Shown: in pieces, positions 8,347 to 56,437 of the stretch
Layout: each line of letters begins with the position of its first letter
Numbering within the stretch: the first letter of the stretch is position 1
Assembly (NCBI GenBank): GCA_016929695.1
Contig: JAFGII010000001.1
Location: 10,629 to 74,628, forward strand
Reading direction: 5' to 3'
Length of the DNA stretch: 64,000 nucleotides
Origin: Ignavibacteria bacterium
Lineage (GTDB): Bacteria > Bacteroidota > Ignavibacteria > Tepidaquicellales > Tepidaquicellaceae
Translations under genes and position numbers: made by a program
The notes under the pieces: model-generated
Seen by the model: the letters and a program-made list of their open reading frames with translations, nothing else
Databases searched by the model: none
What the model was told of the DNA's origin: nothing

Positions 8347-8376
8347 TTAGGGATTTCCTCCTGATAATTTATTTAA

Positions 8377-22433: not shown

Positions 22434-22443
22434 TTTTATTCTC

Positions 22444-23646: not shown

Positions 23647-24927
23647 TCATACATTTTTAAAAGCATTTTTGCCTGCAAAAACAGCCTGTTTGCCGAGCAT
23701 TTTTTCTATTTTTATTAAACGATTGAATTTTGATATCCTTTCGCTTCTACAGCCAGAACCTGTTTTTAAATGACCTGCGTTAACGGCAACGGTTAAATCT
23801 GCAATGGTTGTATCCTCGGTTTCGCCTGAACGGTGCGAAACGAAGCAGTTATAATTATTTTTGTATGCAAGTCTTATTGTTTCAAGTGTTTCCGTTACTG
23901 TTCCTATTTGATTTAATTTAATTAAAATCGAATTTGCAATTCCTTTTTTAATTCCTTCCGACAGTATAACGGGATTTGTGCAGAATATATCATCACCTAC
24001 AATTTCTATTTTATCTCCGAGTTCATCGGTCAGAAGTTTCCATCCGTTCCAGTCATTTTCGGCCATTCCGTCTTCAAGCAAAACAATAGGGTATTTATGT
24101 ACCCAGTCACACCAGTGTTTGACCATCGCCACGGAAGTTCTCTTTGATTTATCGGATTTGAAATTCACATACTGTCCGTCTTCCCACATTTCACTTGCCG
24201 CGGGGTCGAGACAAATGGATATATCATCACCGGGTTTATATCCCGCTTGAACTATTGCTTCCATAATCACTTCCATTGCTTCTTCGTTGGATTTCAGATT
24301 CGGAGCGAATCCGCCTTCATCTCCAACTCCCGTGTTGTATCCTTTTTTTATCAGTATTTTTTTCAGAGTATGAAATGTTTCTATTCCCATTCTTATTGCT
24401 TCCTGAAAATTCGGAGCATTGTGAGGTGCAATCATAAATTCCTGAAAATCAACATTATTATCCGAGTGTTTCCCGCCGTTTATTATATTCATGCACGGAA
24501 CCGGGAGTATATTGGCGGAAGGACCTCCTAAATATTTAAAAAGAGGCAAATTGCAGTATTGCGCCGCTGCTTTTGCCGCAGCGATTGATACACCAAGAAT
24601 CGCATTTGCACCAAGTCTGGATTTATTCTCCGTACCGTCTAATTCAATCATTTTCAAATCAAGATGCTTCTGTTCGGTTATTTCAAGACCTTGTATTGCG
24701 GGTGCTATTATTCTGTTTACATTTTCAATTGCTTTTAACACACCTTTTCCTCCGTACCTTTTTATATCCCCGTCTCTTAATTCCATTGCTTCTTTCTCGC
24801 CCGTGGACGCACCGGACGGTACAAGCGCGTTTGCCGTAATCCCGTTTTCAAGAGTTAATTCGACTTCAACCGTTGGATTTCCTCTCGAATCCAGAACTTC
24901 CATTGCTTCTGTTTTTGAAATTTTCAT
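23647..24927 (-). CDS. eno: Enolase (phosphopyruvate hydratase)
   Basis: 426-aa [27 protein letters not shown] and SHRSGETED motifs. Confidence 0.95.
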
Positions 24928-25217: not shown

Positions 25218-25613
25218 TCAGATTGATTTAATTGCATTTATGAGTTTGTTTATGTCATTTCTGTATGTATTATTGTCAATTTCCATTTTCCCGTATCTCT
25301 GTTCCAAAAAACCGGGGAGCAATTCTTCTGCATAAAGTTCTAAAGTTGTCTTCTTTGACTTTATTAATTGCGATTGAGTCAATGTTAATCTGGTCAGCGA
25401 ATATTTATTGACTATTTCCTTTAATGCTTTCTTTATCCTGAAAATTTTTGAAATAAGTTCTGCATCTTTTTGAATTCCGGAATCCGCTATTATTCCGTAA
25501 GTAGAACTTTCAACTCTGTTCATAAGCAGGCATAATAATTCGTCAATACTTTTTTCGATTACATAAAGCCCTGATGATACGGTTCGCTTATGTTGTTTCT
25601 TTAATTTAATCAT
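25218..25613 (-). CDS. Hypothetical helical protein coupled to the dynamin-like GTPase
   Basis: 131-aa ORF. Its start overlaps the dynamin-like stop by 8 nt (ATGATTAA). Charged, helical composition with no recognisable motif. Confidence 0.45.
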   Translation of the reverse strand: MIKLKKQHKRTVSSGLYVIEKSIDELLCLLMNRVESSTYGIIADSGIQKDAELISKIFRIKKALKEIVNKYSLTRLTLTQSQLIKSKKTTLELYAEELLPGFLEQRYGKMEIDNNTYRNDINKLINAIKSI

Positions 25614-27373: not shown

Positions 27374-27409
27374 ATAACTCCTGCCTAATAGTTTTTAAGC
27401 AGGAGTTAT
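27374..27409 (-). promoter_or_regulatory. Perfect 11-bp hairpin sequestering the SD of the dynamin-like gene (also terminator-like)
   Basis: Minus strand reads ataactcctgc-(14 nt)-gcaggagttat-tttttat-ATG. AGGAG lies inside the 3' arm. The hairpin plus U-tract also fits an intrinsic terminator. Confidence 0.45.
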
Positions 27410-27493
27410 CAGGTTTTTAACACCGGTTTTGGTGAACTCCATCACCTTTAAATTAATTTAATATAAAAATTGCGATATTGCAATTCACTTAAT

Positions 27494-28339
27494 CTAAAAC
27501 TTCGACGACAAATAAACAGTATCTATTGTGTTATTATTTCTAATTGTAATTATATCGTCGCAATATCCTGTATTGGGAAAATAATCAACAATCATATCCT
27601 GATAAGAAGAAGTAAGTTTTATTAAACCTGAAAGAGGATATTTACAATTATCTTGAATTTTAATAGGATTTCCGGAATCAAAAATATTATAACCGAATAA
27701 AGAATTCCCGTTTAATATTGAACCACTGCCAGTTAATAAAAAAACATCATCACCCCAGGTACCAAGGTCTCCAATATCAACTATTCCATTAATAAGAATA
27801 TCAGTACTTTCGTAACTATAATAGCTTCTATTAAAGTTATTTTTCAAATAAAAATAAAGCCTGTAAGTAGATGAATCAATCATCTTGCAGATAATATCAT
27901 CAAAGCCGGAGAACAAAACATTAAATGAATCATTTGTATCAATGCTTCTGTAAATATGAAAATCAGTAAAAGTGATTTTTGCAGTTAATGAGTCATTCTG
28001 AAAGATATGCTCATAATTTATTTCATATTTTCCTTTTCTTCGTGTCAAATTTGATCCGGAAAGGCAGGGAACATTTCCGTAGTCAACGATTATTTTCTTT
28101 GCTGATTGATTGTGAGTAATCACCGGACATATTACTGATGTAATTGGTAAATTTCTGTGAACTTTAATTAACAATAAAACCGCATCAGTGCACATTTTTT
28201 CAAGTTCGCATTCGACTCTGACTGTACTTGCTTCTGTTTCGACATTGGGTGTGACGGGTGTATTCGTCGTGCTGTCGTCACCGCACGTAAATAGAATTAT
28301 TGAGAAAGCCAGTAGAACAAATAGGATTAATTTTTTCAT
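27494..28339 (-). CDS. Hypothetical lipoprotein
   Basis: 281-aa ORF with a lipobox-like signal (LLAFSIILFTC) and a Cys-rich mature part. No family recognised. Confidence 0.55.
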   Translation of the reverse strand: MKKLILFVLLAFSIILFTCGDDSTTNTPVTPNVETEASTVRVECELEKMCTDAVLLLIKVHRNLPITSVICPVITHNQSAKKIIVDYGNVPCLSGSNLTRRKGKYEINYEHIFQNDSLTAKITFTDFHIYRSIDTNDSFNVLFSGFDDIICKMIDSSTYRLYFYLKNNFNRSYYSYESTDILINGIVDIGDLGTWGDDVFLLTGSGSILNGNSLFGYNIFDSGNPIKIQDNCKYPLSGLIKLTSSYQDMIVDYFPNTGYCDDIITIRNNNTIDTVYLSSKF

Positions 28340-28465
28340 TTTCCTTTCCTCGTTTTAGTTAATATAAATTTTAATAAAATAAATTTCAATTATCACAGAC
28401 AAATTATTATATTACGATACTCCTTAAGGCTATAGTAGTCTCTTTCTAATTTTTCGTTAATTTTT

Positions 28466-28499
28466 GTGGATTAAGTGTAAATTTTAGTGGATTAAGTGT
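28466..28499. repeat. Two 13-bp direct repeats (gtggattaagtgt) spaced 21 bp start-to-start
   Basis: Exact copies at 28466-28478 and 28487-28499, in the spacer upstream of the lipoprotein gene. Confidence 0.5.
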
Positions 28500-28610
28500 T
28501 AGAAATTAATACTGCCGATTTGTTTAAGAAAAGAAACATTATCTTACTATTCCACACAATTTCAAGAGTATTAAATTTATTCTTAATTCTCAATTCTTAA
28601 TTTTTAATTG

Positions 28611-29204
28611 TCAGTATTCCTTCCCGTATCCCGCGAAAATTCCTAGTCCTCCGAACGATTCTCCGCTAGACAAAACTATTTTACCCAGCAGTCCAAAATA
28701 ATTCCCGTAAAGTTTCACTTTTAAATCCAGACCGCCTTTAAAAAACATTTTCCCGTCTTTTGTCTTAACTTCGCTTGTTTTATTTTCCGGTTTGATTACG
28801 CTATGATATGTGCCGCCCGCATACAGGTCCAGCCTGATGCGTTTAAAGTCCGCCGTAAACCTCGGGCAGATGTTCACATCAAAAAATTCTACAGTTGCAG
28901 AAAGCAGAGCAGTATTCCCCGGTTCACCCACCACCACATCGCCGAGTATTCCGTAATAGTCCGCTCCCGTTCTGACTCCGAATGATAAAGAGGGAGTTCT
29001 TTTGTTTTTAATAAAATCAAAGTCCGCCGCAACGCATAGCGAATTCACAAAAATCAGCGTTGACGCATCAATCTGAAATCCTTTAAAATCCGCTTCCGCA
29101 TAAAAATTTGTTTCCGAATTATCCTGCTGAGCAAAACCGCTTAACTGAAAAATACAGCAGGAAATAACTGCCAGATAAATTGTTTTAACGTATGTATTGA
29201 CCAT
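28611..29204 (-). CDS. Small OM beta-barrel-like protein, paralogue A
   Basis: Start moved to MVNTYVK (29204), ahead of a signal peptide. Shares FKGFQ(I/V)DA, NYFGLLGK and GESFG.(L/I)GIFAGYGK(E/K)Y with the upstream paralogue. Confidence 0.55.
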   Translation of the reverse strand: MVNTYVKTIYLAVISCCIFQLSGFAQQDNSETNFYAEADFKGFQIDASTLIFVNSLCVAADFDFIKNKRTPSLSFGVRTGADYYGILGDVVVGEPGNTALLSATVEFFDVNICPRFTADFKRIRLDLYAGGTYHSVIKPENKTSEVKTKDGKMFFKGGLDLKVKLYGNYFGLLGKIVLSSGESFGGLGIFAGYGKEY

Positions 29205-29230
29205 TTTACATTTATAATTTATAATTGATT

Positions 29231-29791
29231 TCAGTACTTTTTCCCGTATCCCGCGAAAATCCCGATACACCCGAAAGATTCTCCCGTTGACAGGTCAACC
29301 TTCCCGAGCAAGCCGAAATAATTTTTATACAATTTCACTTTCAAATCAAATCCGCCTTTGATGAAAAATGTATTGTTTTTTAATAACTCTTCGCCCGACG
29401 GAGTTCTAGTTTCCGATACATGATGATATGTTCCACCGACGTTTGCATCTATTCTCATAGTATCGTTATCGGTAGTTAACCTCGGATAAAAATTGAAATC
29501 AAAGAATCTAACCCAGTTTGAATTTCCTCCCACGTCGAATTTTGTATATTTATCGCAGTATTCCGCTCCGAGTCTCACCCCGGATGATATTGCAGGGTCA
29601 TTGAAATTTTTGATTAAATCAAAATCAAATGCTGTCCCGAAAGAATTAATTAGAATCAGAGATGCCGCATCCACCTGAAATCCCTTGAAGTCGGGCTCTG
29701 CGTACAATGTTTTTGATAGTGTATCTTTTTGGGCGAAAGAAGAAGATTTCATAATAAGAATTGCAAAAAACAAAAAGATGATTTTCTTCAT
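29231..29791 (-). CDS. Small OM beta-barrel-like protein, paralogue B
   Basis: 186-aa ORF with a signal peptide. Collinear similarity to paralogue A, including a near-identical C-terminus. Confidence 0.55.
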   Translation of the reverse strand: MKKIIFLFFAILIMKSSSFAQKDTLSKTLYAEPDFKGFQVDAASLILINSFGTAFDFDLIKNFNDPAISSGVRLGAEYCDKYTKFDVGGNSNWVRFFDFNFYPRLTTDNDTMRIDANVGGTYHHVSETRTPSGEELLKNNTFFIKGGFDLKVKLYKNYFGLLGKVDLSTGESFGCIGIFAGYGKKY

Positions 29792-30188: not shown

Positions 30189-30821
30189 GTGGAAAAATCA
30201 ATAGTCGATTTATTTAACGATGGAAAAATAGTAAACAAAATTAAAAAGCGTTTACCTTATTTGTTTCAAATGGCAGAATTAGAAAGTTCCAGATATGGTA
30301 AAATCGGAATGGAAGTAGGCTCATTAAGAGAGAAGGTAATAATTGCTTTATTGATTTACAAATTCGGTGAAAATAATGTAAATATAAATATTCCGATTAC
30401 AAAAGCAGAAATCGATGTAATTGTTTTCGGTAATCCAATATCAATTAAAACTATATCAGGTAAAAATCCCGGTGGAATTAAATTGATTTGGACGGTTGAT
30501 GCAAATTCTGCTTTGGATTTTATGAATAATTATATTCCGATTTGCGATATGATATTGGTAAATATCATCTGGAATGATGAAGGCTCGTTTTATTATATTC
30601 CGATAGAAGTCCAAAGGGAAACATTTAATAAATTATGTAAAGAGAAATATATTAAACTTCCAAAACCCGGTACAAATCCCAGAGGAGTTGAAATGTCTAA
30701 AGATGCTATTATAGCATTAACAAATCATAAATTAATTAAACGAATACCTATCGAGTGGATAAAATCGGAAATAGAATATCGCCCTTATGAAAGATGGGTA
30801 GAATTATGGAGTGAAGAATAA
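30189..30821 (+). CDS. Putative type II restriction endonuclease
   Basis: 210-aa ORF (GTG start), translationally coupled (TAATG) to the DNA methyltransferase. Candidate PD-(D/E)xK element EIDV-x10-SIK. No other family assignment possible by eye. Confidence 0.5.
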   Translation: MEKSIVDLFNDGKIVNKIKKRLPYLFQMAELESSRYGKIGMEVGSLREKVIIALLIYKFGENNVNINIPITKAEIDVIVFGNPISIKTISGKNPGGIKLIWTVDANSALDFMNNYIPICDMILVNIIWNDEGSFYYIPIEVQRETFNKLCKEKYIKLPKPGTNPRGVEMSKDAIIALTNHKLIKRIPIEWIKSEIEYRPYERWVELWSEE

Positions 30822-31813
30822 TGAACAACAAAAGAAAAAATGGAACAACAACCAGTTCGTTTGGGACAAGTGGCAGAATTAATCATGATTCCAGCAAATT
30901 TTATAATTCAAGATTGTATTCATCCGTAAATCTTAAATATTTAGAAGAAACAAAAGAAAATGAACTACCAAAAGAATATGTAAATAAGATAATTTGCGGT
31001 TCATCCGAGAATATGAAAGAGATTCCTGATAATTCTATTCATCTGATGATAACATCACCACCATATAATGTTACGAAAGAATATGACAAGGATTTAACTT
31101 TGGAAGAATATTTGGAACTGTTGAAAAATGTGTTTATAGAGACATACAGAGTATTAGTTAATGGTGGGCGTGCTTGTATTAATTTGGCAAATTTGGGTAG
31201 AAAGCCATACATACCTTTATCTGATTATATTTCACTACTGATGATTGATATTGGATTTAATATGCGAGGAGAAATATTATGGAATAAAGCAGCGAGTGCA
31301 AGCCCATCAACTGCTTGGGGAAGCTGGTTATCAGCCGCTAATCCAATTTTGAGGGATATTCACGAATACATTCTAATATTCTCAAAAGGGGATATGAGCA
31401 GAAATGCAAAGGGAAGGGAAAACACTATCACTAAAGAGCAATTTATGCTGTGGACGAAATCAATATGGACAATGAATGCAGAATCAGCACGCAAAATCGG
31501 ACATCCTGCTCCATTCCCTGAAGAATTACCTTTAAGGTTAATTCATTTATATTCTTTTAAAAACGATATTATCCTTGACCCATTCATTGGCAGCGGTACA
31601 ACGGCGGTTGCAGCTATCAACGCAGATAGAAAATTCATCGGTTATGATATTAGTAAGGAATATGTTACGCTTGCAAATAAAAGATTAAGTAAATATCTGA
31701 CACAGCATAAAATCTCATTTGAGAATCGGAAAGAAGAAAAAGTTGTTTATGCATCTTCTGATAAAGCAAAATTTGAAGTGGCGGATAAGAAGAAAACGAA
31801 AAAGAAAAAGTAA
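30821..31813 (+). CDS. Beta-class DNA amino-methyltransferase (N4-cytosine or N6-adenine)
   Basis: 330-aa ORF. Motif IV ITSPPYNV precedes motif I LDPFIGSGTTAVAA (beta-class order). Lys-rich C-terminal tail. Confidence 0.88.
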   Translation: MNNKRKNGTTTSSFGTSGRINHDSSKFYNSRLYSSVNLKYLEETKENELPKEYVNKIICGSSENMKEIPDNSIHLMITSPPYNVTKEYDKDLTLEEYLELLKNVFIETYRVLVNGGRACINLANLGRKPYIPLSDYISLLMIDIGFNMRGEILWNKAASASPSTAWGSWLSAANPILRDIHEYILIFSKGDMSRNAKGRENTITKEQFMLWTKSIWTMNAESARKIGHPAPFPEELPLRLIHLYSFKNDIILDPFIGSGTTAVAAINADRKFIGYDISKEYVTLANKRLSKYLTQHKISFENRKEEKVVYASSDKAKFEVADKKKTKKKK

Positions 31814-32767
31814 CTATTTATTTATGATAACAATATCAGGCATAGAATCAATTAATTCTTTTATATAGATAGATGGGATGACCTCTACAATTATCATATG
31901 TATAACTTCAGTATATTTTATACTATGACCTTCGTAGTCATATTCTTTTATATATTCCTTTGAAAGCAATCTAAGGACTTTAAAATATATTCTCTCCATA
32001 TAATTTTTATGACCAATAATTCGTCCGTGCTGGTAAATATATATAGGACCACCACTATTACCCCTGAATGTATTTATATCAACTAGAATTTTTTTAAATT
32101 TTTTTTAAGGATAAATTGGATAAGATGCAATAACTCCATTTGATAAAATCGGGAAATAATATCCATTCGAAGAATAACCAAAAGGATAACCAAGACAAAA
32201 AACATTATCAACAGGATGAATTCTTATTTCATCTAAATATGCGTCATCTGCTAAAAGTGATAAATCTATTGCTTTTATATCTAAAAAACTTGGGATATAA
32301 GAATACATAGCAGCTAAATCAATAGAAGTATCTTTATGGCAATAAAATAATTCTGAATTATTTTTCATTATCCGGGTAGTATAATTATAAACTTCATAAA
32401 GTGTATCAGAAAGTTTATATCTAACTTTTATTTCTGCGGTTTCAGAATCCATATCCCTTAAGACATGTTTTGCAGTTACTAATACACCAACTGGTTTTGA
32501 TGGATCGATTTTATTAGGTTTAGCAACCAAAAAGCAAGAACCTTCTACTTTATCCCCATTCAAATTAGTACCAAGTATTTTAAAGGTGGTTGTCATCATT
32601 AGTTCATTGAAATCTTGTGATAAGATTTTTCCGACTTGCATATTATATGCAAATATAAATAATATTAATAAGAACTTTGTTTCCATTGGTATAAAATTTT
32701 TTAATTTCTGAAAATATTTCTCGAATTTAAATATTTTACAAAGAACATAAAACAAAAAAGCAACCAA
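31814..32767 (-). pseudogene. Trypsin-like serine protease interrupted by a single in-frame TAA
   Basis: His (VLVTAKHVL) and Asp (IDLAAM) lie in the 220-aa ORF. TAA is at 32105-32107. The same frame continues KKFKKILVDINTFRGNSGGPIYIY... (Ser motif at 32045-32062) into the 61-aa ORF 31814-31999. Probable start METKF at 32686. Confidence 0.65.
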
Positions 32768-32956: not shown

Positions 32957-35440
32957 TCAGTTCTCCTCGTGTTCTTCGAGCAGGGGCTTCTTTCCGTTTT
33001 TCGTTTTGCCGTCGCTTCCGAAGCGGTAGGTAAGCGTCAGGAATGCGGCGCGCGATGCACGCTTGCGGTAGTATTCGGAATAAAAGTCAGTGTCGAAAAT
33101 TACTGATTCGTATTTCGATGTGTTGAATACGTCAATCAGTTTGAAAATCAGCGAAAGTTTTTTGTCGAAGAAATCTTTTTTGAATGCAATGTCCAGATAA
33201 TAATTCGGCTCGTTTAATCCCTGAACCAGAGCGGAAGCAGTATGTCCGGATATTTGAGGCGTTTCATTTATGCCCATTGCACCGGAGGTTTTGCCCTGAT
33301 AACTGAATAGCAACTGAATTTCAAAATCCGGCGTCAGCGGAAAACTGCTGTACAATTTTCCTACCCACGTTTCGTAGTTGTTGTTGTTTCCTTGGTTGCC
33401 CGAATATACGATTTTCAGATATGAAAGATTTGAATTGAAATACCACCATTTAGAAATATTTCCGTTTAAAATTAATTCAGCGCCGTATGTATCCGATGCA
33501 TCCAAATTTCTATATGTAAAGTATGAACGCCCGGTAGTGTCAGCATAAATGTATCTCGTCATTACGTCATTTACATTTCTGAAAAATACCGCAGGCGATA
33601 CCGTGAGAGCGGGGAAGTAATGATTGTAGCCGAGTTCGAATGAATTAATGTATTCAGGCATTAAATCCGGATTTCCGAACCTCAATACAAGCGGGTCTGC
33701 ATTGTTTACAAATGGATTCAGCATATAGTTTGCCGGTCGGTTGATTCTCCTTGAATAACTCAATGCAATATCGGAATTGTCCGAAACCATTTGCTTTAAA
33801 AATACGCTCGGGAATATGTCGAGATAATTTTTCTTGTTTTCGAAATTTATGTTTAACTGTTTTGCAGTTGTGTTTGTCTGCTCGAGGCGTATTCCCGCCT
33901 GATAAGAAAACTGCTTGTATTTATTGCTGTAAATTCCGTAGAGAGCGTTTATGTATTCGTCGTAAATGAAATCATTTGTCATCGAAAGGTTTTGCGTCCA
34001 GTTGTTTATGCTGTAATCATAGTAATCAACGTTGAAGTACGAATCGGTTTTTCTGTAAAGGGATTTTACTCCCGTTTCAATCTTCCCGAAGTTCTCTATC
34101 GCATTGACGTAGTCCGCCTGAAAATTTGCAATCTGAAATTTATTTTCCGTGTAATCGTTTTCCAGATAGGGGAGCGAATCGGCGGGCGTGCCATCAAGAT
34201 TGTATAATGTCTGGTTGATTCCGAGAACGAGGTCTTCCTTCGAATTCGAATACTGAGAAGAAATGTTTAAAAAATTGTCTTTGGAAAAAACTTTTTTGTA
34301 TGATGCCGAAATATCTAAACCGTATCCGCTTATGTCGAATACGTTGTCACGGTTGTAATATTTTACGGGAACATAGTTTATGTCAAAATTTCTGTAGAGC
34401 GTGTTCTCGCTTCTGATTCTTCCTCTGTTACTGTATGAAGCGGACAAATTCAGTATGTCGTTATCGCTAAGATAATAGTCGAGCCCGATGTTTCCCGTGT
34501 GGCTTGTTAATCTGTTCCTTAAATGGTTCTCCTGATTCTGATAATAAAGTAAATCATTCAGATAATTCTGCGTGTATGTGTGCCCGTCCGCCTTCATATT
34601 CATCCGTCTGAAACTGTATGACGCCAGAAGAGAATATTTCTCGCGCCTGATGTTTGCGTTTACCGATAAACTGTATTTGTCAAGCGTTCCCGCATTCAGC
34701 GATATTATGAAATTTTCAGATGTGCCGCTGTTTTTGGGGGCGCTTTTCTTTAATACGATGTTAACGATTCCCGTTATTCCTTCCGCTTCGTATTTTGCCG
34801 AAGGATTGCTGATGATTTCGATGGACTCTATTATATTTGACGGAATCAGGTCTAAGGATGATGCTGGGTCTGTGCTTAATATTCCCGATTGATTTCCGTT
34901 GACAAGAAATACTATGTTGCTGTTTCCGCGAATGCTTACTTTTCCTTCGCTGTCAACCGTTACCGAAGGAATGCTTTTCAGTACATCGCTCGCGGTTCCG
35001 CTTTCGGAGATAATGTTCTTTTCTATGTTGTAAACTTTCATATTTTCCCTGTTCTCAACGTATAACCGCTCTGCATTAACTTCTATCGTTGCTGTGGAAT
35101 CCTGCGATGATTGCAGAATGATTCTTCCTAAATCCTGACTCGGCGAATTCTTGTCTAATTTAATTTCGTTCGTGTAGTCTGCATAACCGATGAAACTGAT
35201 AGATAATTTATACATAGAATTCGGAATGTTGCTGAATTCAAATTCGCCTTTGGAATCCGTAAGCATACCGAATTTGATTTCCGTGTCTTTTGCCGATACG
35301 ATTCTTACTACGGCATTCTCAAGAGGTATGTTGTCATTACCGTCTATTACCGTACCTTTGACCGATGCATTTTGTCCGTAGGAATTAAAATACTCTAAAA
35401 CTAATAATAAAAATGTAAAAATCAAAATTTTTCTAATCAT
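32957..35440 (-). CDS. TonB-dependent receptor-like OM protein with N-terminal carboxypeptidase-regulatory-like domain
   Basis: 827-aa ORF with a signal peptide. VKGTVIDGNDNIPLENAVVRI (CarbopepD_reg-like), a plug-like segment and a long beta-barrel region ending in TLTYRF. Confidence 0.8.
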   Translation of the reverse strand: MIRKILIFTFLLLVLEYFNSYGQNASVKGTVIDGNDNIPLENAVVRIVSAKDTEIKFGMLTDSKGEFEFSNIPNSMYKLSISFIGYADYTNEIKLDKNSPSQDLGRIILQSSQDSTATIEVNAERLYVENRENMKVYNIEKNIISESGTASDVLKSIPSVTVDSEGKVSIRGNSNIVFLVNGNQSGILSTDPASSLDLIPSNIIESIEIISNPSAKYEAEGITGIVNIVLKKSAPKNSGTSENFIISLNAGTLDKYSLSVNANIRREKYSLLASYSFRRMNMKADGHTYTQNYLNDLLYYQNQENHLRNRLTSHTGNIGLDYYLSDNDILNLSASYSNRGRIRSENTLYRNFDINYVPVKYYNRDNVFDISGYGLDISASYKKVFSKDNFLNISSQYSNSKEDLVLGINQTLYNLDGTPADSLPYLENDYTENKFQIANFQADYVNAIENFGKIETGVKSLYRKTDSYFNVDYYDYSINNWTQNLSMTNDFIYDEYINALYGIYSNKYKQFSYQAGIRLEQTNTTAKQLNINFENKKNYLDIFPSVFLKQMVSDNSDIALSYSRRINRPANYMLNPFVNNADPLVLRFGNPDLMPEYINSFELGYNHYFPALTVSPAVFFRNVNDVMTRYIYADTTGRSYFTYRNLDASDTYGAELILNGNISKWWYFNSNLSYLKIVYSGNQGNNNNYETWVGKLYSSFPLTPDFEIQLLFSYQGKTSGAMGINETPQISGHTASALVQGLNEPNYYLDIAFKKDFFDKKLSLIFKLIDVFNTSKYESVIFDTDFYSEYYRKRASRAAFLTLTYRFGSDGKTKNGKKPLLEEHEEN

Positions 35441-35780
35441 AATATTCAGTTTAATTTATATTCCTATATAACGCAAATACTGTGCCAATAATTCATTTTC
35501 TTATTAAAGATTATATTAAGGATGAATTTATAAATTTCCGACAATTATGACGCTTCATCCGACAATAAATACTTAATTTTTATTGAATAAATTATCTGAA
35601 TTTGCCTGTGAAGAAGTTATAATATTGTTTTGGTATTTAATTATCCCCTCCTGATTTTCAGACCCGTTTTATAATATTTAATTAAATTTAAATTTATTCA
35701 TTATAGTCTCATTATTGATTCAGAATATCCTGATTGCGGCGGATTGAGGCGGAGATAACAATTTTATATTTAAAATGTTA

Positions 35781-38069
35781 CTATAGTACTTCTATTTTTA
35801 AACCTGCAAAAATGCTTCTCGGCAGAGCAGGTCCGTAGATATAACCCGCATCCCTGAATTCTCCTTTGTCGAAGTCTTTCTGATAATTGTTAAACAGATT
35901 TTCCATTCCTGAAAAAATATGAATTGAATAGTTATTGGATATTTTAAGTTTATATGTGAATTTCAGATTAAGTGTAAAAAAGTTGTCTGTATTTTCCAGT
36001 CTGTCTGAGTCAGTATATCCTGCGAAGTGAGGAACAATCATAGTACCGGTATAGATTCCTGAAATCGCAATTGAAAAATATTTCAGAGGGATTACAGAGA
36101 GGTTCAGATATCCGTATTTGTCAGGCGAACGCAGGAGTCTGTCTACAAATAAGGAAGTTGTATCTTTGCTCCATTGGTATGGAATTGTATATTTGCTTTT
36201 CTGAATTGTGAAGCCTGCCTGAAAATTCAGCCGTGAAAATGGAACAATTCTTAATTCCAGATTGACTCCTTTGACATTAGCCCCATCTCCGTTTTGTCTT
36301 TCCAGGATAATATTACCTCCGGTATCTCTTCCAACTTCCTTTAGAATGAAGACACCGTCAAGTGATGTGTAAAAGCCTTCTATAAGAAAATTTAAGTTTA
36401 TTCCATTTATTGTTTTAAATATATCCAGCGAACCACTGATACCTTTGGAATATTCGGGTTTGAGATTATCTGCAAGCCCCATCAGTATTACGTTTCCCCC
36501 TACTGCTGTTATATGAAGGTCTTCATCGAATGTCTGCGGTGCTCTGTAGCCGGTTGAGTAACTCAATCTGATTATGTAATCTTTCATCAATGTATATCTG
36601 AAGTTTGCTCTGGGGCTGAGAATAAAATCGTTTATCAGATTGTGTTTATCTGCCCGGAGTCCGAGCAGGAATGAAATTTTATCCGTTTTCCATTCATTCT
36701 GGAGAAAGATGCCGCCGATATTAACTTTCTGTTTCAGCAGTCTGTTATATCCAGTCATAACGTCTTCAAGATCTCCGTATGTATATTCCGTTCCTACTGT
36801 GAATTCAGAGGGGTATAAAAGAAACTTCTCGAAATAGTTCACGTACTGCGCTCCGGAAACGGAGGTTATATCATCTGTCTTTCCGTAAGCATTGGGGTCT
36901 CTTCCTGCACCGTAATAACTGTTTCTGATAATGGTCTGAAGCGATGAGTACAGATTCAGTTTTCTGCTGAGGTCTCTGGAAAAGATTTTGAATTCCAGAC
37001 TTCCTCCGTTGATTCTGTGTTCGGTTTGTTCCGTGATGTCGGATTCGTGAGGCTGTTTATCAAAAAGGTTTCCGCCTCTTCTGAATTCATTGATGTGATG
37101 ATATTCGAGTTCGAGTTTACTTGTTTCTGAAGTATTGTAAAAAGTTCTTAAACCGAAAGTAGTCTGATTTATTTTTCCGAGTTCGGAGAAGTCATCATCA
37201 TTTGCAAAATAGGGTTTTCTGTTTCTGAGCATCCCGAAAAATGAAACGCCCGCTCTGCGATCTTCTGTAACAAGCGCTCCGTTTAGATTGAAAGTATTAT
37301 CGGGCGTTTTTCCGCCTATTGAACTGTAATTATTGCTGATTGTGAAAGTATTATAAAGCGGCTCTTTAGTTATTATGTTGATGGTTCCTGCTATTGCATT
37401 GGAGCCGAAGAGCGCCGAGCCTCCGCCGCGCATAATTTCAACCCTGTCAATCATATTAACGGGAATCTGTTCGATTCCGTAAACACCCGCCAGTGTACTG
37501 AAAACAGAACGGCTGTCAATCAGGATTTGAGAATACGGTCCTTCGAGTCCGTTAATTCTGACCTGCTGAAAACCGCAATTCTGACAGTTGTTTTCGATTC
37601 TGAGTCCGGGCTGAAAGTTGAAAGTCTGTGCCAGGCAGACGGCGTTTGTTTTTTCAATCAGTTCGGGAGTGATTAAACTGATTATTACGGGAGTTTCTTT
37701 TCTGTTGGTTTCGTTACGGTTTGAGGTAATAACAATTTCTTCCGTCATCAGGACATCTTCATCGAGTTCGAAATTAACTTCGATTGATTTATTTTTTGTA
37801 ACCTTGATTTGTTTCTCGGATGACTTGTAGCCGAGTCCGTAAGCCCTTATCGTGTAATTTCCTTCCGGAATATTACTGAAAAAATAGTGTCCGCTTTTAT
37901 CCGTAGCAGTTTCGTATGTAGTTCCTTTTAAACTGATGCTAATATACGGAATATGCAAGTTTGATTTTGAATTCAGCGTGTGTCCGAAGATATTGGCATC
38001 ACTTCTTGATTGTGAATATAAATTAAGGGATATTATTATATTAATAATAATAATGAAAATTGTTTTCAT
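35781..38069 (-). CDS. TonB-dependent receptor
   Basis: 762-aa ORF. Signal peptide, CarbopepD_reg-like domain, plug with IENNCQNCGFQQVRINGLEG and IEIMRGGGSALFGSNAIAGTINIIT, then a barrel. Confidence 0.85.
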   Translation of the reverse strand: MKTIFIIIINIIISLNLYSQSRSDANIFGHTLNSKSNLHIPYISISLKGTTYETATDKSGHYFFSNIPEGNYTIRAYGLGYKSSEKQIKVTKNKSIEVNFELDEDVLMTEEIVITSNRNETNRKETPVIISLITPELIEKTNAVCLAQTFNFQPGLRIENNCQNCGFQQVRINGLEGPYSQILIDSRSVFSTLAGVYGIEQIPVNMIDRVEIMRGGGSALFGSNAIAGTINIITKEPLYNTFTISNNYSSIGGKTPDNTFNLNGALVTEDRRAGVSFFGMLRNRKPYFANDDDFSELGKINQTTFGLRTFYNTSETSKLELEYHHINEFRRGGNLFDKQPHESDITEQTEHRINGGSLEFKIFSRDLSRKLNLYSSLQTIIRNSYYGAGRDPNAYGKTDDITSVSGAQYVNYFEKFLLYPSEFTVGTEYTYGDLEDVMTGYNRLLKQKVNIGGIFLQNEWKTDKISFLLGLRADKHNLINDFILSPRANFRYTLMKDYIIRLSYSTGYRAPQTFDEDLHITAVGGNVILMGLADNLKPEYSKGISGSLDIFKTINGINLNFLIEGFYTSLDGVFILKEVGRDTGGNIILERQNGDGANVKGVNLELRIVPFSRLNFQAGFTIQKSKYTIPYQWSKDTTSLFVDRLLRSPDKYGYLNLSVIPLKYFSIAISGIYTGTMIVPHFAGYTDSDRLENTDNFFTLNLKFTYKLKISNNYSIHIFSGMENLFNNYQKDFDKGEFRDAGYIYGPALPRSIFAGLKIEVL

Positions 38070-50225: not shown

Positions 50226-50298
<73 letters not shown>

Positions 50299-50309
50299 CG
50301 AGGTTTATA

Positions 50310-50357: not shown

Positions 50358-50419
50358 AGGAGGAGTTTAATTCTGTTGTTACTGCGACCGTGTTTCTTTT
50401 GATGTTTTATTTTCTTCAA

Positions 50420-50600
50420 ATATGTCATCTATTAGAGGTTAAATCCCTTTGCATTCAAATTCTGGAATATCTCACCTCTGCAAGATAAAATTCCGTTTAT
50501 ATTCTAAAAATATATCATTTCTGCAAGGTTAAATCCCGTTGCATTCATTTCCAAAAAAATATCTAACCTCTCCGCGGTTAAGTCCCGAATAGATGATTTT
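50420..50600. repeat. Four degenerate tandem repeats of about 46 bp
   Basis: Units start at 50420, 50467, 50512 and 50559, each opening ATAT(G/C). Units 1 and 3 share the core GGTTAAATCCC(T/G)TTGCATTCA. Units 2 and 4 are degenerate (GATAAAATTCCGTTTATATTC, GGTTAAGTCCCGAATAGATGA). Confidence 0.6.
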
Positions 50601-50802
50601 ATATAGAATAAATTGTCCGGAAAATAAGTAAATGAATATTTGTTTGTACAGTATTTAGGCAATCGCTGAAATTAAATTTTAAATATTTTTATAAAACGGG
50701 AACTATTTTAATTTAGATAAGGTTTTAACGTTCAAAACATTTAAAACGTTTAAAACAATTAAATCATTTATAAATTAAATAAATATAAGAAAGGATACAA
50801 AA

Positions 50803-51537
50803 ATGACAAACAAAATCAAATTATCTGCACTGGCAATTTTTATTTTAGGATTATTTTCATTCGGAGTCTTTACAGGATGCAGTGATGACAATAATCCGAT
50901 AAATCCTGCAATACTGAAAGATTCATATCTCAGGGTGATACATTCATCCGCAAATGCTCCTAACGTAGATGTTTATGCTAACGGCACAAAAGTTCTGAGC
51001 AATGTTCCGTACCAGACAGGTTCTTCCTATCTCAAAGTAACGGAAGGGAGTTACAACATAAAGGTCACTCCTGCAAATGACACGACTGGCGTGATTGTTG
51101 CGACATTAAACTTAGCCGGAGATAATAAATATACTGTCATTGCTCCCGGAAGTGTTGCGAACTTGCAAAATAATGTGATAGTAGCGCTTGATACAAACTC
51201 AAACACTCCAACCTCCGGAAATTTCAAATTGAGAGCGATACACGGTTTCGAGACTGCGGCAGTTGATGTTCACGTCAGCCAGACGAATAACTTCACACCT
51301 GATGCAAGCACAAGAGTAGTTCCATCATTTCCGTTCAGGGGCATTACTCCTTATCTTGAATTGCCTGCGGGAACATACTATGTAAATATTACTCTTCCGG
51401 AAGAATTCACTAAACTAATTCCCACAGATTTTATGCTGACAGGAGCAAACGGAAATATATTTACTGCTGTAGCAAGCGGTTACAATGTAATAACCCCGGG
51501 TTCAGGACCGGTACTAAACGGCTATCAGGATAATTAA
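50803..51537 (+). CDS. DUF4397-like lipoprotein
   Basis: 244-aa ORF. Lipobox (GVFTGC) and two DUF4397-type repeats (LRVIHSSANAPNVDVYANG, LRAIHGFETAAVDVHV). Confidence 0.7.
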   Translation: MTNKIKLSALAIFILGLFSFGVFTGCSDDNNPINPAILKDSYLRVIHSSANAPNVDVYANGTKVLSNVPYQTGSSYLKVTEGSYNIKVTPANDTTGVIVATLNLAGDNKYTVIAPGSVANLQNNVIVALDTNSNTPTSGNFKLRAIHGFETAAVDVHVSQTNNFTPDASTRVVPSFPFRGITPYLELPAGTYYVNITLPEEFTKLIPTDFMLTGANGNIFTAVASGYNVITPGSGPVLNGYQDN

Positions 51538-51551
51538 TATTCTAAACCGTA

Positions 51552-51590
51552 ACAGGCAGGGCTGCTTAAACGGCTCTGCCTGTATATTTT
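51552..51590 (+). terminator. Terminator-like hairpin
   Basis: acaggcag-(16 nt)-ctgcctgt followed by atatttt (weak T-tract). Confidence 0.45.
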
Positions 51591-51653
51591 GCATTATAAA
51601 GAGTTATCTTGAAACAAATTTTATTTTATTATAAATTATGAATGTGATTAATT

Positions 51654-52556
51654 ATGAAACAAAAATTACTAACATCTTCACAAGTTGCAGAACTAATTAA
51701 TGTAAATGTTTCTACCGTTAAAAGGTGGACTGATAGCGGAGAAATCAAATGCACGCACACTCTCGGAAAACACAGAAAATACAGAATTCAGGATATAATA
51801 GAATTTGCAACTAAAAATCACATTCAAATAAATCCCTCACTATACTATCCCGAAGGAGAAAATAACGAAGAGATAAGACAAATTAATTTCGCAGTCTATT
51901 CAAATGATTATCAGTTTTTATCCAATGCTTTTTATAATTACATTTTAAGCGGAAATAAGTCTAAGGCGGAAAACCTTTTGAAACTGATTTACGGACATAA
52001 AGTCCCTCTTGGAACGATATGCGACTCGGTTATTGCATCTTCTTTGAAACACATCGGGAAAGACTGGTATGAAAACAGAATCGGAATAGAGACGGAACAT
52101 CTTGCTTCGAACATAGCTCTTCATTCCATCATAAAACTGCAGGATGTAATCATTAAAAAGAAGCCGAAAGGTTTTGTCTCCTTATGCGGATGTCTCACAG
52201 ATGAGTTTCACAACATCGGAATTACCTGTGTCAACAATTTACTGGAATCCGAAGGATGGGAAAGTTATCTGCTAGGAAGCAATACTCCTGCATCTTCTTT
52301 CATAAAAATGATTGAACTATATAAACCTCATCTCGTATGCATTTCCACTTCAGTAATAAACGACGTTAAAACATTTACTGAGGAGGTAAATGCAGTTTAC
52401 AAGTTTACAAAAAAACATAAAGGAAGACTTGCTGTATCGGGTCAGTCTCTCACTCCGGAAATGAGAAATCAAATTAGAACGGACTATACTCCGGATTCAA
52501 CAAACCGGATTTTAGAAATACTCGGTGAAATCGAATTCAAAACAAAACTGAAGTGA
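51654..52556 (+). CDS. CarH/LitR-like B12-binding transcriptional regulator (MerR/excisionase-type HTH + helical bundle + cobalamin-binding Rossmann domain)
   Basis: 300-aa ORF. N-terminal HTH LTSSQVAELINVNVSTVKRWTDSGEI. W138-x9-E148-H149 (DWYENRIGIETEH, 52065-52100). E-x-H-x-x-G at EFH186NIG (52209-52211), 37 aa after the EH pair. Confidence 0.75.
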   Translation: MKQKLLTSSQVAELINVNVSTVKRWTDSGEIKCTHTLGKHRKYRIQDIIEFATKNHIQINPSLYYPEGENNEEIRQINFAVYSNDYQFLSNAFYNYILSGNKSKAENLLKLIYGHKVPLGTICDSVIASSLKHIGKDWYENRIGIETEHLASNIALHSIIKLQDVIIKKKPKGFVSLCGCLTDEFHNIGITCVNNLLESEGWESYLLGSNTPASSFIKMIELYKPHLVCISTSVINDVKTFTEEVNAVYKFTKKHKGRLAVSGQSLTPEMRNQIRTDYTPDSTNRILEILGEIEFKTKLK

Positions 52557-53033: not shown

Positions 53034-54542
53034 TCATTTCATTAAAATCATCTTCTTCGTCTCAATATAATTATCTGCCTGCAGTCTGTAGAAATATACT
53101 CCGCTGGAGTAATACTCACCGTTGAATTCTACTTCATAAGAACCGGGAGATAAATTTTCATTCACAAGGACCGAGACTTCTTTTCCTAAAATATCAAATA
53201 CGGTTAATTTGATATTTGAGTATTTCGGATTTTTAAATCTTATTGTTGTGAGTGGATTGAACGGATTAGGATAATTTTGTTCAAGTACATAAGATTGCGG
53301 GATTTGATTTTCAATACTCCTTATTCTGGTAACAGCATTGTATCTGTCCCAGTATACTTTTTTGTCCGTACCGTCCAGTCCTACCCATGCAGCACCTACA
53401 TCGCCTGTATTGTATATTTCCACCAGCGCAGGTAAATATAATCGGGCAGACCATCCCGGAATATGCTCACTAAACTGCTCAGGGCTGGAGAAAGTTGTTG
53501 GTGCTGTTGTAACTGCAAAACTGTAAAGCATTTTATCCGAGTTATTAGTTGGTGTACCGCTTTGCAAACTGTCTGAATAGTATATAATGTCAACACCTCC
53601 TGGACCTCCTATAAAATGTCTTGCCTCGAACCAGTATTCATCTGTATTTGGATTTCCGGCGAGTATTACCGGAGAAGCATAATTTAATCCGCTGTTTGTG
53701 CTCAACATGTACTTTATGTCTATCGCTCCTGTTGTTCCCAGTGTATATATCATCCAGACTATACCATTGTAAAAAACAGGTTGAACTTCACTTTTTGGCT
53801 GTGTTTCAGTTACAACATTCTGAAAGCCCATAGATGAAATAGTACCGGGTGCCGATTCTCTGTAGCGACCTACTCTTATTATTGAGGATATAGTATCAGG
53901 AGTTAATGTACTGCCGTAGAAAGTCAGGATAAGTGTATCACCCGAACCGGACATATACATCCTTGGAAAAGCACCGTTTGAAACAGTTCCGGTTTGACTG
54001 GTTGAAATAAATCCGTTTGTTGAAGAATATCTCGGAAGTGAAGTTGATGTAAGAGCATCTGCGACTACATATAATCCACCCGTTGAGGAACCTACTGCAT
54101 CAAAATCGCGATATGTCATTGTAGTTATTGAACCTAATTGTAAAGATTCCACATTCAGGCAATATATGATTGAATTTATCAGGTAGAAATAATAAACCGA
54201 GTCAAGCCCGGTGCGTACCATTTTTGCTCTCAACGGCATTACCGTTCCTGAGTAACTTGCCGGAGTAGTCCATGTGACACCGTTGTTTATTGATTTGAAA
54301 ATTACGATACTTTTTCCTGGTATAATAGCTGTATCGGAAACGGCAAGATATATCGTACCGTTTGCTTTTGCAATTCCTGTTATTTTTCCGAATGGCTCAG
54401 AACTTGAAACCAATATATCACCTGCCCAGTCAGGTTCATATTGAACGGTTTCGGATTTTGTATAATTCGTTGTCCAAGTTTGAGCAAATAAACCTGTTGC
54501 TGAAATTAAAACAACTAAAAGTAAAAATGAAAATGTTTTCAT
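53034..54542 (-). CDS. T9SS cargo protein with BNR/sialidase-like beta-propeller features
   Basis: 502-aa ORF with a signal peptide. BNR-like SINNGVTWTT and STNSGLNY. C-terminal NYPNPFNP...GVYFYRLQ...KKMILMK Por_Secre_tail. Confidence 0.6.
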   Translation of the reverse strand: MKTFSFLLLVVLISATGLFAQTWTTNYTKSETVQYEPDWAGDILVSSSEPFGKITGIAKANGTIYLAVSDTAIIPGKSIVIFKSINNGVTWTTPASYSGTVMPLRAKMVRTGLDSVYYFYLINSIIYCLNVESLQLGSITTMTYRDFDAVGSSTGGLYVVADALTSTSLPRYSSTNGFISTSQTGTVSNGAFPRMYMSGSGDTLILTFYGSTLTPDTISSIIRVGRYRESAPGTISSMGFQNVVTETQPKSEVQPVFYNGIVWMIYTLGTTGAIDIKYMLSTNSGLNYASPVILAGNPNTDEYWFEARHFIGGPGGVDIIYYSDSLQSGTPTNNSDKMLYSFAVTTAPTTFSSPEQFSEHIPGWSARLYLPALVEIYNTGDVGAAWVGLDGTDKKVYWDRYNAVTRIRSIENQIPQSYVLEQNYPNPFNPLTTIRFKNPKYSNIKLTVFDILGKEVSVLVNENLSPGSYEVEFNGEYYSSGVYFYRLQADNYIETKKMILMK

Positions 54543-55042: not shown

Positions 55043-56437
55043 CTATCTCAGCAAAATCATTTTTCTTGTTTCACTGAAATTACCGGTTGTTAGTTTGTAA
55101 AAATATACTCCGCTCGAATATTCTGAAGCATCAAAGAATACCTCGTATGTCCCTGCACTTTGATTTTTATTCAACAGTACTTTGATTTCCTTACCTGTGA
55201 TATCATATATAACTATTCTAACAAAATCATCCAAGGGTAACGAATAACTTATTTTTGTTGAAGGATTGAATGGATTCGGAAAGTTCTGTGTTAGTTTAAC
55301 CTCATTGGAGATAAAACCATCACCTTTAATAGTTTTTGATTTTGTTAAATAAATTTTGTCTATTAATTCATTTTCCTCATTATATACTTTCAATGAAAAT
55401 GATTTAGGAGAAACGTCAAAAACACCAAAACAGTATGTCTCCATGGCTTTTATAGTGTACGATGCATAAGTTGGAATTCTCTTGGTACCTCCTGTCGGTG
55501 ATATTATTATATGATGTATGTTATCCACTAAATTATGCTGATAAAAATGATTATGCCCGGAAATTACCATATCAACTTCGTTGGGAACAAATATTCCCTC
55601 ACTCATTACGACCATATCAGGGTCCTCACCGTGACTTCCAGAACTGTATGCGGGTTTATGTGAAACAACAATTTTCCAAATTTTTTCTGTTTGCTCAATA
55701 TCCGATTTAACAAAATTATATTGCTCACTGTTTAGCCCGTCGGGTAATTCATTGTTGATGACTGTAAAATGTACATCACCGTAATCAAATGAGTAGTATG
55801 CCTGTGTCCCTGAATATATCGTCGGATTTTGTTCAAATGCCTTTATGTTTATATTATTAAAATAATTATAACCATCGTGATTCCCTGCAACTCCGAAGAA
55901 AGGAATTCTCGAAATTACGTTTAATTCGTTTTGCGTAAAGAATTCATTCTTCCAGGAACTGTATGTTGTATAATGACATAAATCTCCTCCCCAGATTAGA
56001 AACTTAGGATTATAGGACGGTATGAGTGCTGATATTTTATTATGTATATCAATTCCCACCTGACAATCCGCAAGCCAGACAAAACGAAATTTTTTCCCTG
56101 ATTGAATGCTTGTGTAAAAAGAATAACCGTCATAAATCGTATTTTGTTGGGAAGCTGAGTAAAAATATTTCATACCGGCAGATAAGTTGGTTAATGGAAT
56201 TCTGTGGACGTATGTAACGGGTATCGCTGAAGTAGTTAAATAAAATTCCGTAATTGCAGAGAAACCGTAATTTTTATTAGGACCGTAATTTACTGTAACG
56301 GCATCCGTAGTATTAGTTTCAACCATTATATAAACTGAATTTGTGGAAACAGACTGCAGGTACGGAGGCATAATAATATCCGCATAAAATTTTACGGGAA
56401 TAAACAGAAGTAAAATAATTAAAAAGACTTTTTTCAT
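55043..56437 (-). CDS. Secreted calcineurin-like metallophosphoesterase with T9SS C-terminal domain
   Basis: 464-aa ORF. Purple-acid-phosphatase-like N-terminal domain, GGDLCHY, GVAGNHDG and SGHNHFYQ motifs. C-terminal NFPNPFNP...GVYFYKL...RKMILLR. Confidence 0.8.
   Translation of the reverse strand: MKKVFLIILLLFIPVKFYADIIMPPYLQSVSTNSVYIMVETNTTDAVTVNYGPNKNYGFSAITEFYLTTSAIPVTYVHRIPLTNLSAGMKYFYSASQQNTIYDGYSFYTSIQSGKKFRFVWLADCQVGIDIHNKISALIPSYNPKFLIWGGDLCHYTTYSSWKNEFFTQNELNVISRIPFFGVAGNHDGYNYFNNINIKAFEQNPTIYSGTQAYYSFDYGDVHFTVINNELPDGLNSEQYNFVKSDIEQTEKIWKIVVSHKPAYSSGSHGEDPDMVVMSEGIFVPNEVDMVISGHNHFYQHNLVDNIHHIIISPTGGTKRIPTYASYTIKAMETYCFGVFDVSPKSFSLKVYNEENELIDKIYLTKSKTIKGDGFISNEVKLTQNFPNPFNPSTKISYSLPLDDFVRIVIYDITGKEIKVLLNKNQSAGTYEVFFDASEYSSGVYFYKLTTGNFSETRKMILLR

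Follow-up and report, generated by a model that had tools for sequence, protein, structure and literature searches.

B12-dependent photoreceptors provide the light sense of many non-phototrophic bacteria, and have been turned into optogenetic and biomaterial switches. All characterized CarH/LitR proteins are dark-state repressors, and CarH operators consist of three or four tandem 11-bp repeats, nnnnTnnACAn (PMC9304148). A further branch is represented by CtMerR of Chloracidobacterium thermophilum (WP_157850694; PDB 8JBS/8JBT; Yu et al., FEBS J 2024, PMC11796333), whose cobalamin-binding domain (CBD) binds adenosylcobalamin (AdoCbl). Green light of 530 nm photolyzes the bound cofactor to a hydroxocobalamin-like state, and the CBD tetramer dissociates to monomers (PMC11796333). 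Here we compare with these proteins a regulator encoded in 64,000 nucleotides of DNA from an Ignavibacteria bacterium (contig JAFGII010000001.1, positions 10,629 to 74,628), a stretch that we call the window. The regulator gene occupies window positions 51654–52556 on the forward strand and encodes 300 residues; a DUF4397 lipoprotein gene lies upstream.

Two other groups of proteins bear on the comparison. The photocobilins (SasPcob and AbDPcob; 8J2W/8J2X/8J2Y; PMC10979010) have a homologous light-responsive CBD, but join it to a biliverdin-binding domain and/or a diguanylate cyclase, domains that the regulator lacks, and contain no helix-turn-helix (HTH). BldC of Streptomyces (6AMA/6AMK; Schumacher et al. 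2018, PMC5859096) is a MerR-like winged HTH protein whose multimers line up head-to-tail on 9-bp direct repeats, AATTnnnn(C), present in variable number; the C-G pair is read by Arg30, and the wing residue His46 lies in the AT-rich minor groove. The comparison leads to a model to which we assign a probability of about 0.6: the regulator would be an AdoCbl photoreceptor-repressor that binds an array of 9-bp repeats in the dark, and frees the DUF4397 gene in the light. Taken alone, the identification of the protein as an AdoCbl photoreceptor-regulator is highly likely.

The regulator comprises a BldC/HTH_17-type winged HTH, a four-helix bundle, and a Rossmann CBD, an architecture read from the open reading frame (ORF), Pfam, the 8jbs structure, an AlphaFold2 model, and Foldseek. 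Pfam places HTH_17 at residues 5–55 (4.9e-11, 43.1 bits), with MerR_1 also above its cutoff (1.2e-5, 25.7 bits; cutoff 21.6), B12-binding_2 at residues 91–155 (2.1e-5), and B12-binding (PF02310) at residues 178–266 (7.6e-9). The translation reads DWYENRIGIETEH from residue 137, which gives W138, E148, and H149, and EFHNIG from residue 184, which puts H186 37 residues beyond H149. (The codons are 52065–52067 for W138, 52095–52100 for E148-H149, and 52209–52211 for H186.) Translation and Pfam thus bear out the ORF, the amino-terminal HTH, and the motifs that a first-pass annotation had noticed in the letters.

That annotation took these residues for the cofactor-enclosing residues of CarH, and alignment puts them at the equivalent positions. 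BLASTP against TtCarH (reference sequence checked, and 100% identical to PDB 5c8d/3whp) pairs W138 with W131, E148-H149 with E141-H142, H186 with H177, G135 with G128, and G208xxxP212 with G199xxxP203, at 22% identity. The W138-x9-E148-H149 motif (52065–52100, forward strand) would thereby cap the upper, 5'-deoxyadenosyl face of the cofactor. Likewise, E184-F-H186-N-I-G189 (52203–52220, forward strand) aligns with TtCarH E175-x-H177-x-x-G180, and H186 is the predicted lower axial cobalt ligand. According to Yu et al., Trp, Glu, and His together with the axial His separate light-responsive CBDs from enzyme CBDs (PMC11796333). Of the signature published in the same paper (GxxW, EH, GxxH, GxxxP), the regulator has G135xxW138, E148H149, and G208xxxP212, but its GxxH element reads D183xxH186.

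The regulator is nevertheless not a CarH orthologue, because it scores 49.2 bits against the NCBIfam CarH equivalog NF052513 (cutoff 400), and because CtMerR is its best solved relative. A PDB search returned 8jbs (8JBS/8JBT) at E 2.1e-36, residues 3–289 matching 15–308; photocobilins followed at 5.6e-10 to 2.8e-9, and CarH reached only 4.4e-5. Predicting the structure was among the checks that the first-pass annotation proposed, and the AlphaFold2 model (40-sequence alignment; predicted local distance difference test score, pLDDT, 92.8) superposes on light-sensing CBDs. Foldseek ranks 8jbs/8jbt highest (template-modelling score, TM, 0.88–0.91; root-mean-square deviation 1.7–1.9 Å over 215–220 columns), then the TtCarH CBD (TM 0.74–0.83) and the photocobilins (TMq 0.61), all before methionine synthase. 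Sequence comparison thus assigns the regulator to the CtMerR branch of the CarH superfamily, as a photoreceptor candidate. The label "CarH/LitR-type" stands for the B12 light-sensor reading, to which motifs, fold, CtMerR, and gene context all point; it fails for orthology, given the equivalog score, the BldC-type DNA-binding domain, and Tyr139.

Finer details also align the regulator with CtMerR. The two share their full-length architecture, including the HTH, and conserve Trp, Glu-His, the axial His, and GxxxP. Both lack a His after the Trp (Arg in CtMerR, Tyr139 here in place of TtCarH H132). In TtCarH, H132 forms a bis-His light adduct (the His is found in many, not all, CarH proteins); without it, no such adduct is expected from the regulator. 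Both also lack the TtCarH Arg176-Asp201 pair (Leu/Asn in CtMerR; Phe185/Asn210 here). They differ in phylum (Acidobacteriota for CtMerR, Ignavibacteriota here), in the change from GxxH to DxxH, and in overall sequence, their CBDs being only 26–27% identical by Foldseek. Likewise, the regulator shares with CarH/LitR proteins (TtCarH, 5C8D/5C8E; Bacillus megaterium CarHBm; Myxococcus CarH) a two-module design, with the Wx9EH and ExHxxG motifs at equivalent positions; a dark oligomer on tandem direct repeats that overlap a promoter, here predicted; and, among its relatives, a regulon of carotenogenesis and photolyase. AdoCbl binding, light response, and oligomeric state of the regulator itself are predicted from these likenesses.

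The DNA-binding domain (residues 5–55; 51666–51818, forward strand) appears closer to BldC than to the classical MerR type of CarH, although MerR_1 also matches above its cutoff. Searched alone against the PDB, the amino-terminal 60 residues retrieved only CtMerR (8jbs, E 1e-7) and BldC (6AMA/6AMK, E 7.7e-7); CarH was not found. The NCBIfam BldC model matches at 1e-12 (47.7 bits, under the cutoff of 77). In the HMMER alignment to 6ama, R24 and H40 are the equivalents of BldC Arg30 and His46, with conservation of at least 90% for each in the family alignment. Like BldC, the regulator has a homologous winged HTH and no coiled-coil dimerization helix. BldC is a stand-alone, sensorless protein of 68 residues that oligomerizes only on DNA, whereas in the regulator the domain is fused to a CBD predicted to dissociate in light. 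That the CtMerR branch carries a BldC/HTH_17-type DNA-binding domain appears, from these sequence matches, to be recognized here for the first time. In the literature searched, no link between CarH-type photoreceptors and BldC was found, and CtMerR was found only in its original paper (PMC11796333), without a DNA site.

The window contains a candidate operator of the BldC kind. Five tandem 9-bp direct repeats, TTAACGTTC AAAACATTT AAAACGTTT AAAACAATT AAATCATTT, lie at 50725–50769 on the forward strand, 34–78 bp 5' of the DUF4397 start codon; Tandem Repeats Finder flagged period-9 repeats at 50727–50770. The exact four-unit pattern occurs in the 64 kb only at this site (0.00 expected, 100 shuffles), whereas a looser three-unit pattern with one mismatch has 2.0 chance matches per 64 kb. 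The repeats follow the degenerate unit WWWWCRnnY: as in BldC sites, an AT-rich tetrad precedes a C, at a period of 9 bp and in variable number (about five to seven units in orthologous arrays). The unit differs from BldC sites in a conserved CG/CA at positions 5–6, and from the 11-bp CarH repeat in both length and pattern. The CarH-type operator nnnnTnnACAn was also sought, and rejected: it forms no array, and its only one-mismatch match in the 64 kb (at 55015; 0.61 expected) is unrelated.

Arrays of this kind recur across the family. A lag test of self-similarity (lags 6–14), applied without bias to every intergenic region of 85 loci that encode relatives of the regulator, and independent of any unit definition, found lag 9 to be best in 49 of 143 regulator-adjacent regions (binomial p 2e-13), versus 5 of 47 controls (p 0.61). 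With an array defined as three consecutive WWWWCRnnY units, each of 9 bp, with at most one mismatch, arrays lie at −23 to −57 from the regulator ATG on the regulator's strand in 40 of the 85 loci, and on the opposite strand in none. Three-unit clusters elsewhere number 10 in 1.29 Mb of strand-sequence, a density that predicts 0.1 at the regulator-proximal position; six of these 10 are the arrays that precede DUF4397 genes in the subclade to which the window belongs. At 17 loci or more, a near-consensus promoter TTGAC(A/T)-N17/18-TATATT ends 0–1 nt short of the first unit, which puts the start site and leader under the array. This geometry, directly after the −10 element, fits a repressor that acts by occlusion, because the array covers start site and leader. 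The operator of the CtMerR branch is therefore predicted, from sequence, to be tandem 9-bp direct repeats WWWWCRnnY with a BldC-like period and pattern.

(A scan of metagenome contigs for the array AAAACRTTYAAAACRTTYAAAACR found no regulator or DUF4397 homolog among the at least 120 matches listed, which were unrelated AT-rich repeats; the pattern is too AT-rich for specificity at that scale.)

Relatives in the Blastocatellia place the array differently. In three loci (L063, 6587–6620; L068, 6542–6575; L078, 6467–6500) a 9-bp array, for example ATCAAAACGGCCAAAACGTGCAAAATT, lies not 5' of the regulator but in the divergent intergenic region between a gene for a σ70-family protein of about 510 residues and an ABC1 atypical kinase gene. 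This placement suggests light control of a sigma factor.

Family membership and gene context were assessed on a larger scale. A phmmer search of 1.84 billion cluster representatives returned 1335 proteins at E<=1e-10; of the best 150, nearly all match over the full length and have 280–320 residues. Among 163 aligned members, the Trp is kept in 148, the Glu in 151, and the His of Glu-His in 138; GxxxP has its Gly in 159 and its Pro in 155. The position of H186 is His in 124 and Tyr in 26, and the residue after the Trp is Glu, Ala, Ser, Tyr, or Lys. The Gly position of GxxH varies (Gly 64, Asn 28, Asp 22, Glu 20), so the Asp183 of the regulator is not exceptional. The 26 members with Tyr for the axial His retain the Trp and Glu-His cap, and may form a subgroup that is base-on/His-off or B12-independent (CarA-like).

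Representative genomes in GTDB contain 360 relatives of the regulator, and the best 80 of these are mostly from Ignavibacteriota, Bacteroidota (Chitinophagaceae), and Acidobacteriota (Blastocatellia). In a census of two genes on each side of the regulator in the 85 loci (neighbors clustered, Pfam run on cluster representatives), the recurrent partners are CrtI-like amine-oxidase (22 loci), phytoene synthase (13), epimerase/DUF1731 (13), polyprenyl (geranylgeranyl diphosphate, GGPP) synthase (8), DUF4397 (6), and DNA photolyase (5). The CrtI-like gene frequently overlaps the regulator stop codon; its products belong only to the CrtI superfamily (254 bits against NCBIfam CrtI/CrtD equivalogs, cutoff 549.7). 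The calls for phytoene synthase (2.4e-83), polyprenyl synthase, and photolyase are firm. (GlgB, the commonest neighbor with 31 loci, was rejected as a target; it lies upstream of promoter and array, which marks it as clade synteny.) Carotenoid and photolyase genes are the classic light-induced set, and this neighborhood supports the photoreceptor reading of the family independently of the motifs. The CtMerR branch very probably controls carotenoid and photolyase genes as a rule.

The window is different. Pfam scans covered ORFs of at least 150 residues in 1–44 kb and selected ORFs to 57 kb, alongside precomputed matches for 50.8–62.5 kb; no carotenoid or photolyase gene was found among these larger or selected ORFs. 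Whole-window tblastn with the CrtI-like, phytoene synthase, GGPP synthase, photolyase, and epimerase partners found nothing either (best E 0.035). The first-pass annotation was thus right that carotenoid (crt) genes are missing nearby, and that the neighbors are instead a DUF4397 lipoprotein (Pfam 2.1e-32) and cargo of the type IX secretion system (T9SS), in the form of two T9SS-tail proteins recognized by Pfam (53034–54542 and 55043–56437). Its conclusion that the targets could not be named fares less well: no crt target is close by, but the family-specific array predicts, from sequence, that DUF4397 is one.

The DUF4397 gene (50803–51537, forward strand) encodes 244 residues with two DUF4397 stretches and a lipobox Cys (…FTGC). 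The AlphaFold2 model, of moderate confidence (pLDDT 72), has two tandem β-sandwich domains, for which Foldseek found only the tandem Ig-like extracellular domain of PepT1/PepT2 (most alike) and sandwiches like those of carbohydrate-binding modules. Close orthologues are confined to the window's subclade. There, the order array, DUF4397, regulator is kept in five orthologous loci (L001, L002, L006, L007, L008) with regulators 60–82% identical, while the flanks differ: an integrase island, a major facilitator superfamily (MFS) transporter, Amidase_3, or an alcohol dehydrogenase. The gene is thus a probable light-controlled target; its product is probably an envelope lipoprotein, with expression predicted to depend on light.

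A locus from a distant Ignavibacteria metagenome-assembled genome (L037; regulator 29% identical) carries promoter, array, regulator, fasciclin, and four-repeat DUF4397 genes on one strand. The last two (5253–7153), 3' of the regulator, encode a fasciclin-domain protein of 174 residues and a DUF4397 protein of 428 residues. DUF4397 is thus associated with the regulator family a second time, and independently, which makes the connection between the two stronger.

The sequence that abuts the array suggests how the gene might be transcribed. The element GGGAAC-N17-GGTT (50698–50724, forward strand) occupies the place of TTGACA-N17-TATATT in other family members, and is a candidate promoter of the extracytoplasmic function (ECF) sigma type. 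It has one match in the window versus 0.13 expected, and CGGGAAC is invariant in the five orthologous loci. In 207 loci, seven of the 10 matches to the GGGAAC-N17 motif adjoin arrays, including GGGAAC-N17-CGTT in L065 and L069. The element fits the sigE/sigH consensus, GGAAC-N17-18-cGTT (PMC10012870). The ECF-like reading is favored because no σ70 promoter (at least 9 of 12 matches) was found 5' of the DUF4397 gene. We propose, with modest confidence and by analogy, an ECF-type promoter gated by the photoreceptor. Such an arrangement would echo the pairing of CarH with CarQ; regulator and sigma factor are likewise paired in LitR/LitS.

Downstream, an intrinsic terminator follows the DUF4397 gene (51552–51592, forward strand; hairpin 51552–51583 with a 13-bp stem and 8 GC pairs, then a T-run). 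Orthologues keep a hairpin here; that of L006 differs in sequence. The regulator has its own σ70-like promoter, TTGAAA-N17-TAAATT (51609–51637, forward strand), a conserved block in the orthologue alignment that contains no operator units; the regulator therefore appears to be expressed constitutively. (Transcripts that start at the DUF4397 promoter and run past the terminator might also include the regulator gene.) Autoregulation was considered and dropped, there being no two-unit operator match in 51538–51660. Of the two regions that the first-pass annotation proposed for mobility-shift assays, then, 50.4–50.8 kb holds the array, and 51.54–51.65 kb is without operator-like units.

These elements suggest the following cycle. 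In the dark, AdoCbl would be held by H186 from below, and capped by W138, E148, and H149 from above; it would cause the protein to assemble into an oligomer, which by comparison with CtMerR is probably a tetramer. The BldC-type winged helices of this oligomer would bind head-to-tail on the five repeats at 50725–50769, directly after the promoter-like element, and so block transcription initiation or escape. Green or visible light would cleave the Co-C bond, the oligomer would dissociate, and the repeats would be vacated. The DUF4397 gene would then be expressed, probably from the ECF-sigma-type promoter, with the regulator itself made from its own unregulated promoter. Array binding, repression rather than activation, dependence on an ECF sigma factor, and any function of DUF4397 are all predicted steps in this scheme.

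Several points weigh against it. The experiments with CtMerR concern the CBD, not the full-length protein (PMC11796333), and the regulator has Asp183 where the published GxxH signature begins with Gly. On the DNA-binding side, BldC Lys26 is replaced by Ser20, BldC both represses and activates (PMC5859096, PMC6428758), and the unit WWWWCRnnY was defined after the sequences had been inspected. The sigE/sigH consensus comes from another phylum, and with no σ70 promoter before the DUF4397 gene, the repressor geometry at this site rests on analogy. Literature, NCBIfam (no match), and fold suggest no function for DUF4397. The first-pass annotation also proposed a check for cobalamin genes: the window ORFs scanned contain no cob, btu, or adenosyltransferase genes, and an Rfam search of the window detected only tRNA-Met and a fluoride riboswitch, no cobalamin riboswitch. 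(Two TonB-dependent receptors at 32957–38069 give no B12 signal.)

Three other explanations deserve consideration. The regulator could be a genuine B12 photoreceptor whose real targets, such as unlinked crt or photolyase genes, lie elsewhere, the array being bound by another factor or being an AT-rich promoter feature. Only 64 kb of the genome is in view, CarH genes unlinked to crt are known from some myxobacteria (PMC9304148), and in so AT-rich a window the looser array pattern arises by chance. However, the exact four-unit pattern is found nowhere else in the window, the same type of array sits at a fixed position 5' of so many homologous regulators, and array, DUF4397, and regulator persist together in the five orthologous loci amid different flanks. 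We consider this explanation unlikely; additional unlinked targets, by contrast, are compatible with the array-repressor model. Indeed, several metagenome-assembled genomes contain two regulator paralogues on separate contigs (L028/L058, L029/L043, L050/L054), in one example adjoining a photolyase and an epimerase/carboxyltransferase, respectively. By analogy, the window's organism may have a second copy that controls crt or photolyase (phr) genes.

Alternatively, the array-bound regulator might be an activator relieved by light, or an architectural factor, much as BldC acts at some promoters. The dual action of BldC and its distortion of DNA (PMC5859096, PMC6428758) would allow this, as would the uncertain identity of the DUF4397 core promoter. 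Against it stand the occlusion geometry, with the array 0–1 nt after a near-consensus −10 hexamer in those 17 or more family loci; the uniform dark-state repression by characterized CarH/LitR proteins (PMC9304148); and the neighboring photoprotective genes, which are expected to be light-induced. Activation thus seems quite improbable. A third possibility, a light-independent regulator that senses the availability or form of B12, draws on the many B12-binding domains that are not photoreceptors, on the family members with Tyr for the axial His, and on D183. Yet the regulator retains the Trp, Glu, His, and axial His that are the hallmark of light-responsive as opposed to enzyme CBDs (PMC11796333); in structure, photoreceptors make up all of its best matches, and methionine synthase ranks below them; and family neighborhoods feature carotenoid and photolyase genes rather than B12 metabolism, with neither a cobalamin riboswitch nor cob/btu genes nearby. 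We regard a light-independent sensor as very unlikely.

Other loci in the window merit brief description. The first-pass annotation's inclusion of T9SS cargo is matched by a secretion cluster on the reverse strand (4098–12396), which confirms type IX secretion in the organism: PorV (7249–8346), a PorU-like C25 peptidase of 1339 residues (8377–12396), and an FG-GAP T9SS cargo protein of 1019 residues (4098–7157). The fluoride riboswitch (27393–27455, reverse strand; 50.2 bits, E 6e-11) lies 27 nt 5' of a gene for a 586-residue dynamin-family GTPase, followed on the same strand by genes for enolase, a Na+/H+ exchanger, a universal stress protein, and an MFS transporter (ORFs 25606–27366, 23647–24927, 22444–23634, 22008–22502, and 20850–22007). 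It is unusual for a fluoride riboswitch to be followed first by a gene for a dynamin-like GTPase. A type II restriction-modification pair at 30189–31813 (forward strand), comprising a ThaI-type endonuclease (4.9e-89) and an N6/N4 DNA methylase, is flanked by several ORFs without a Pfam match (27494–29791 and 32105–32767). Finally, beside the tRNA-Met gene (50226–50299), four degenerate direct repeats of about 37 nt (AATATnTCAnCTCTGCAAGGTTAAATCCCGTTGCATT) occupy 50419–50594 at 43–49 nt spacing. They resemble the T-arm and 3' end of a tRNA, and in the orthologous locus L001 a tyrosine-integrase island is inserted at the same tRNA-Met; the repeats could be remnants of decayed att sites at an integration hot spot.

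What, then, does this locus add? Light-responsive CBD regulators like CtMerR were published in 2024, and the regulator joins them. New, from computation, appear to be the BldC-type DNA-binding domain of the branch, a family-wide 9-bp operator at the −10 element, and a subclade in which this operator would control a DUF4397 lipoprotein gene behind an ECF-like promoter, in place of crt or photolyase genes. A more far-reaching idea, tentative and on present evidence doubtful, is that CtMerR-like proteins are a distinct mechanistic class, in which a CBD tetramer that dissociates in light would pre-arrange BldC-type winged helices on three to five head-to-tail 9-bp repeats at the −10 element, and that in this Ignavibacteria subclade the operator moved from an ancestral autoregulated crt/photolyase operon to the ECF-sigma-type promoter of DUF4397. 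If true, non-phototrophic bacteria would have a new cell-surface response gated by light plus stress, with DUF4397 (and the fasciclin protein of L037) as its output.

One more B12 photoreceptor would not in itself surprise a specialist. For CtMerR, however, no DNA target has been reported: the branch was described from its CBD, with neither DNA site nor regulon. The arrays in 40 of 85 loci now offer a concrete, testable operator, together with a predicted target gene. The only linked target predicted in the window's subclade is the DUF4397 lipoprotein, where CarH/LitR proteins have adjacent crt genes, so light induction would provide a first functional handle on DUF4397. It becomes possible to test directly how proteins of the branch bind DNA, and to test a first role of DUF4397. 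If confirmed, these predictions would link the CarH and BldC families, so far studied separately, and light-controlled gene expression would gain a new DNA-binding module.

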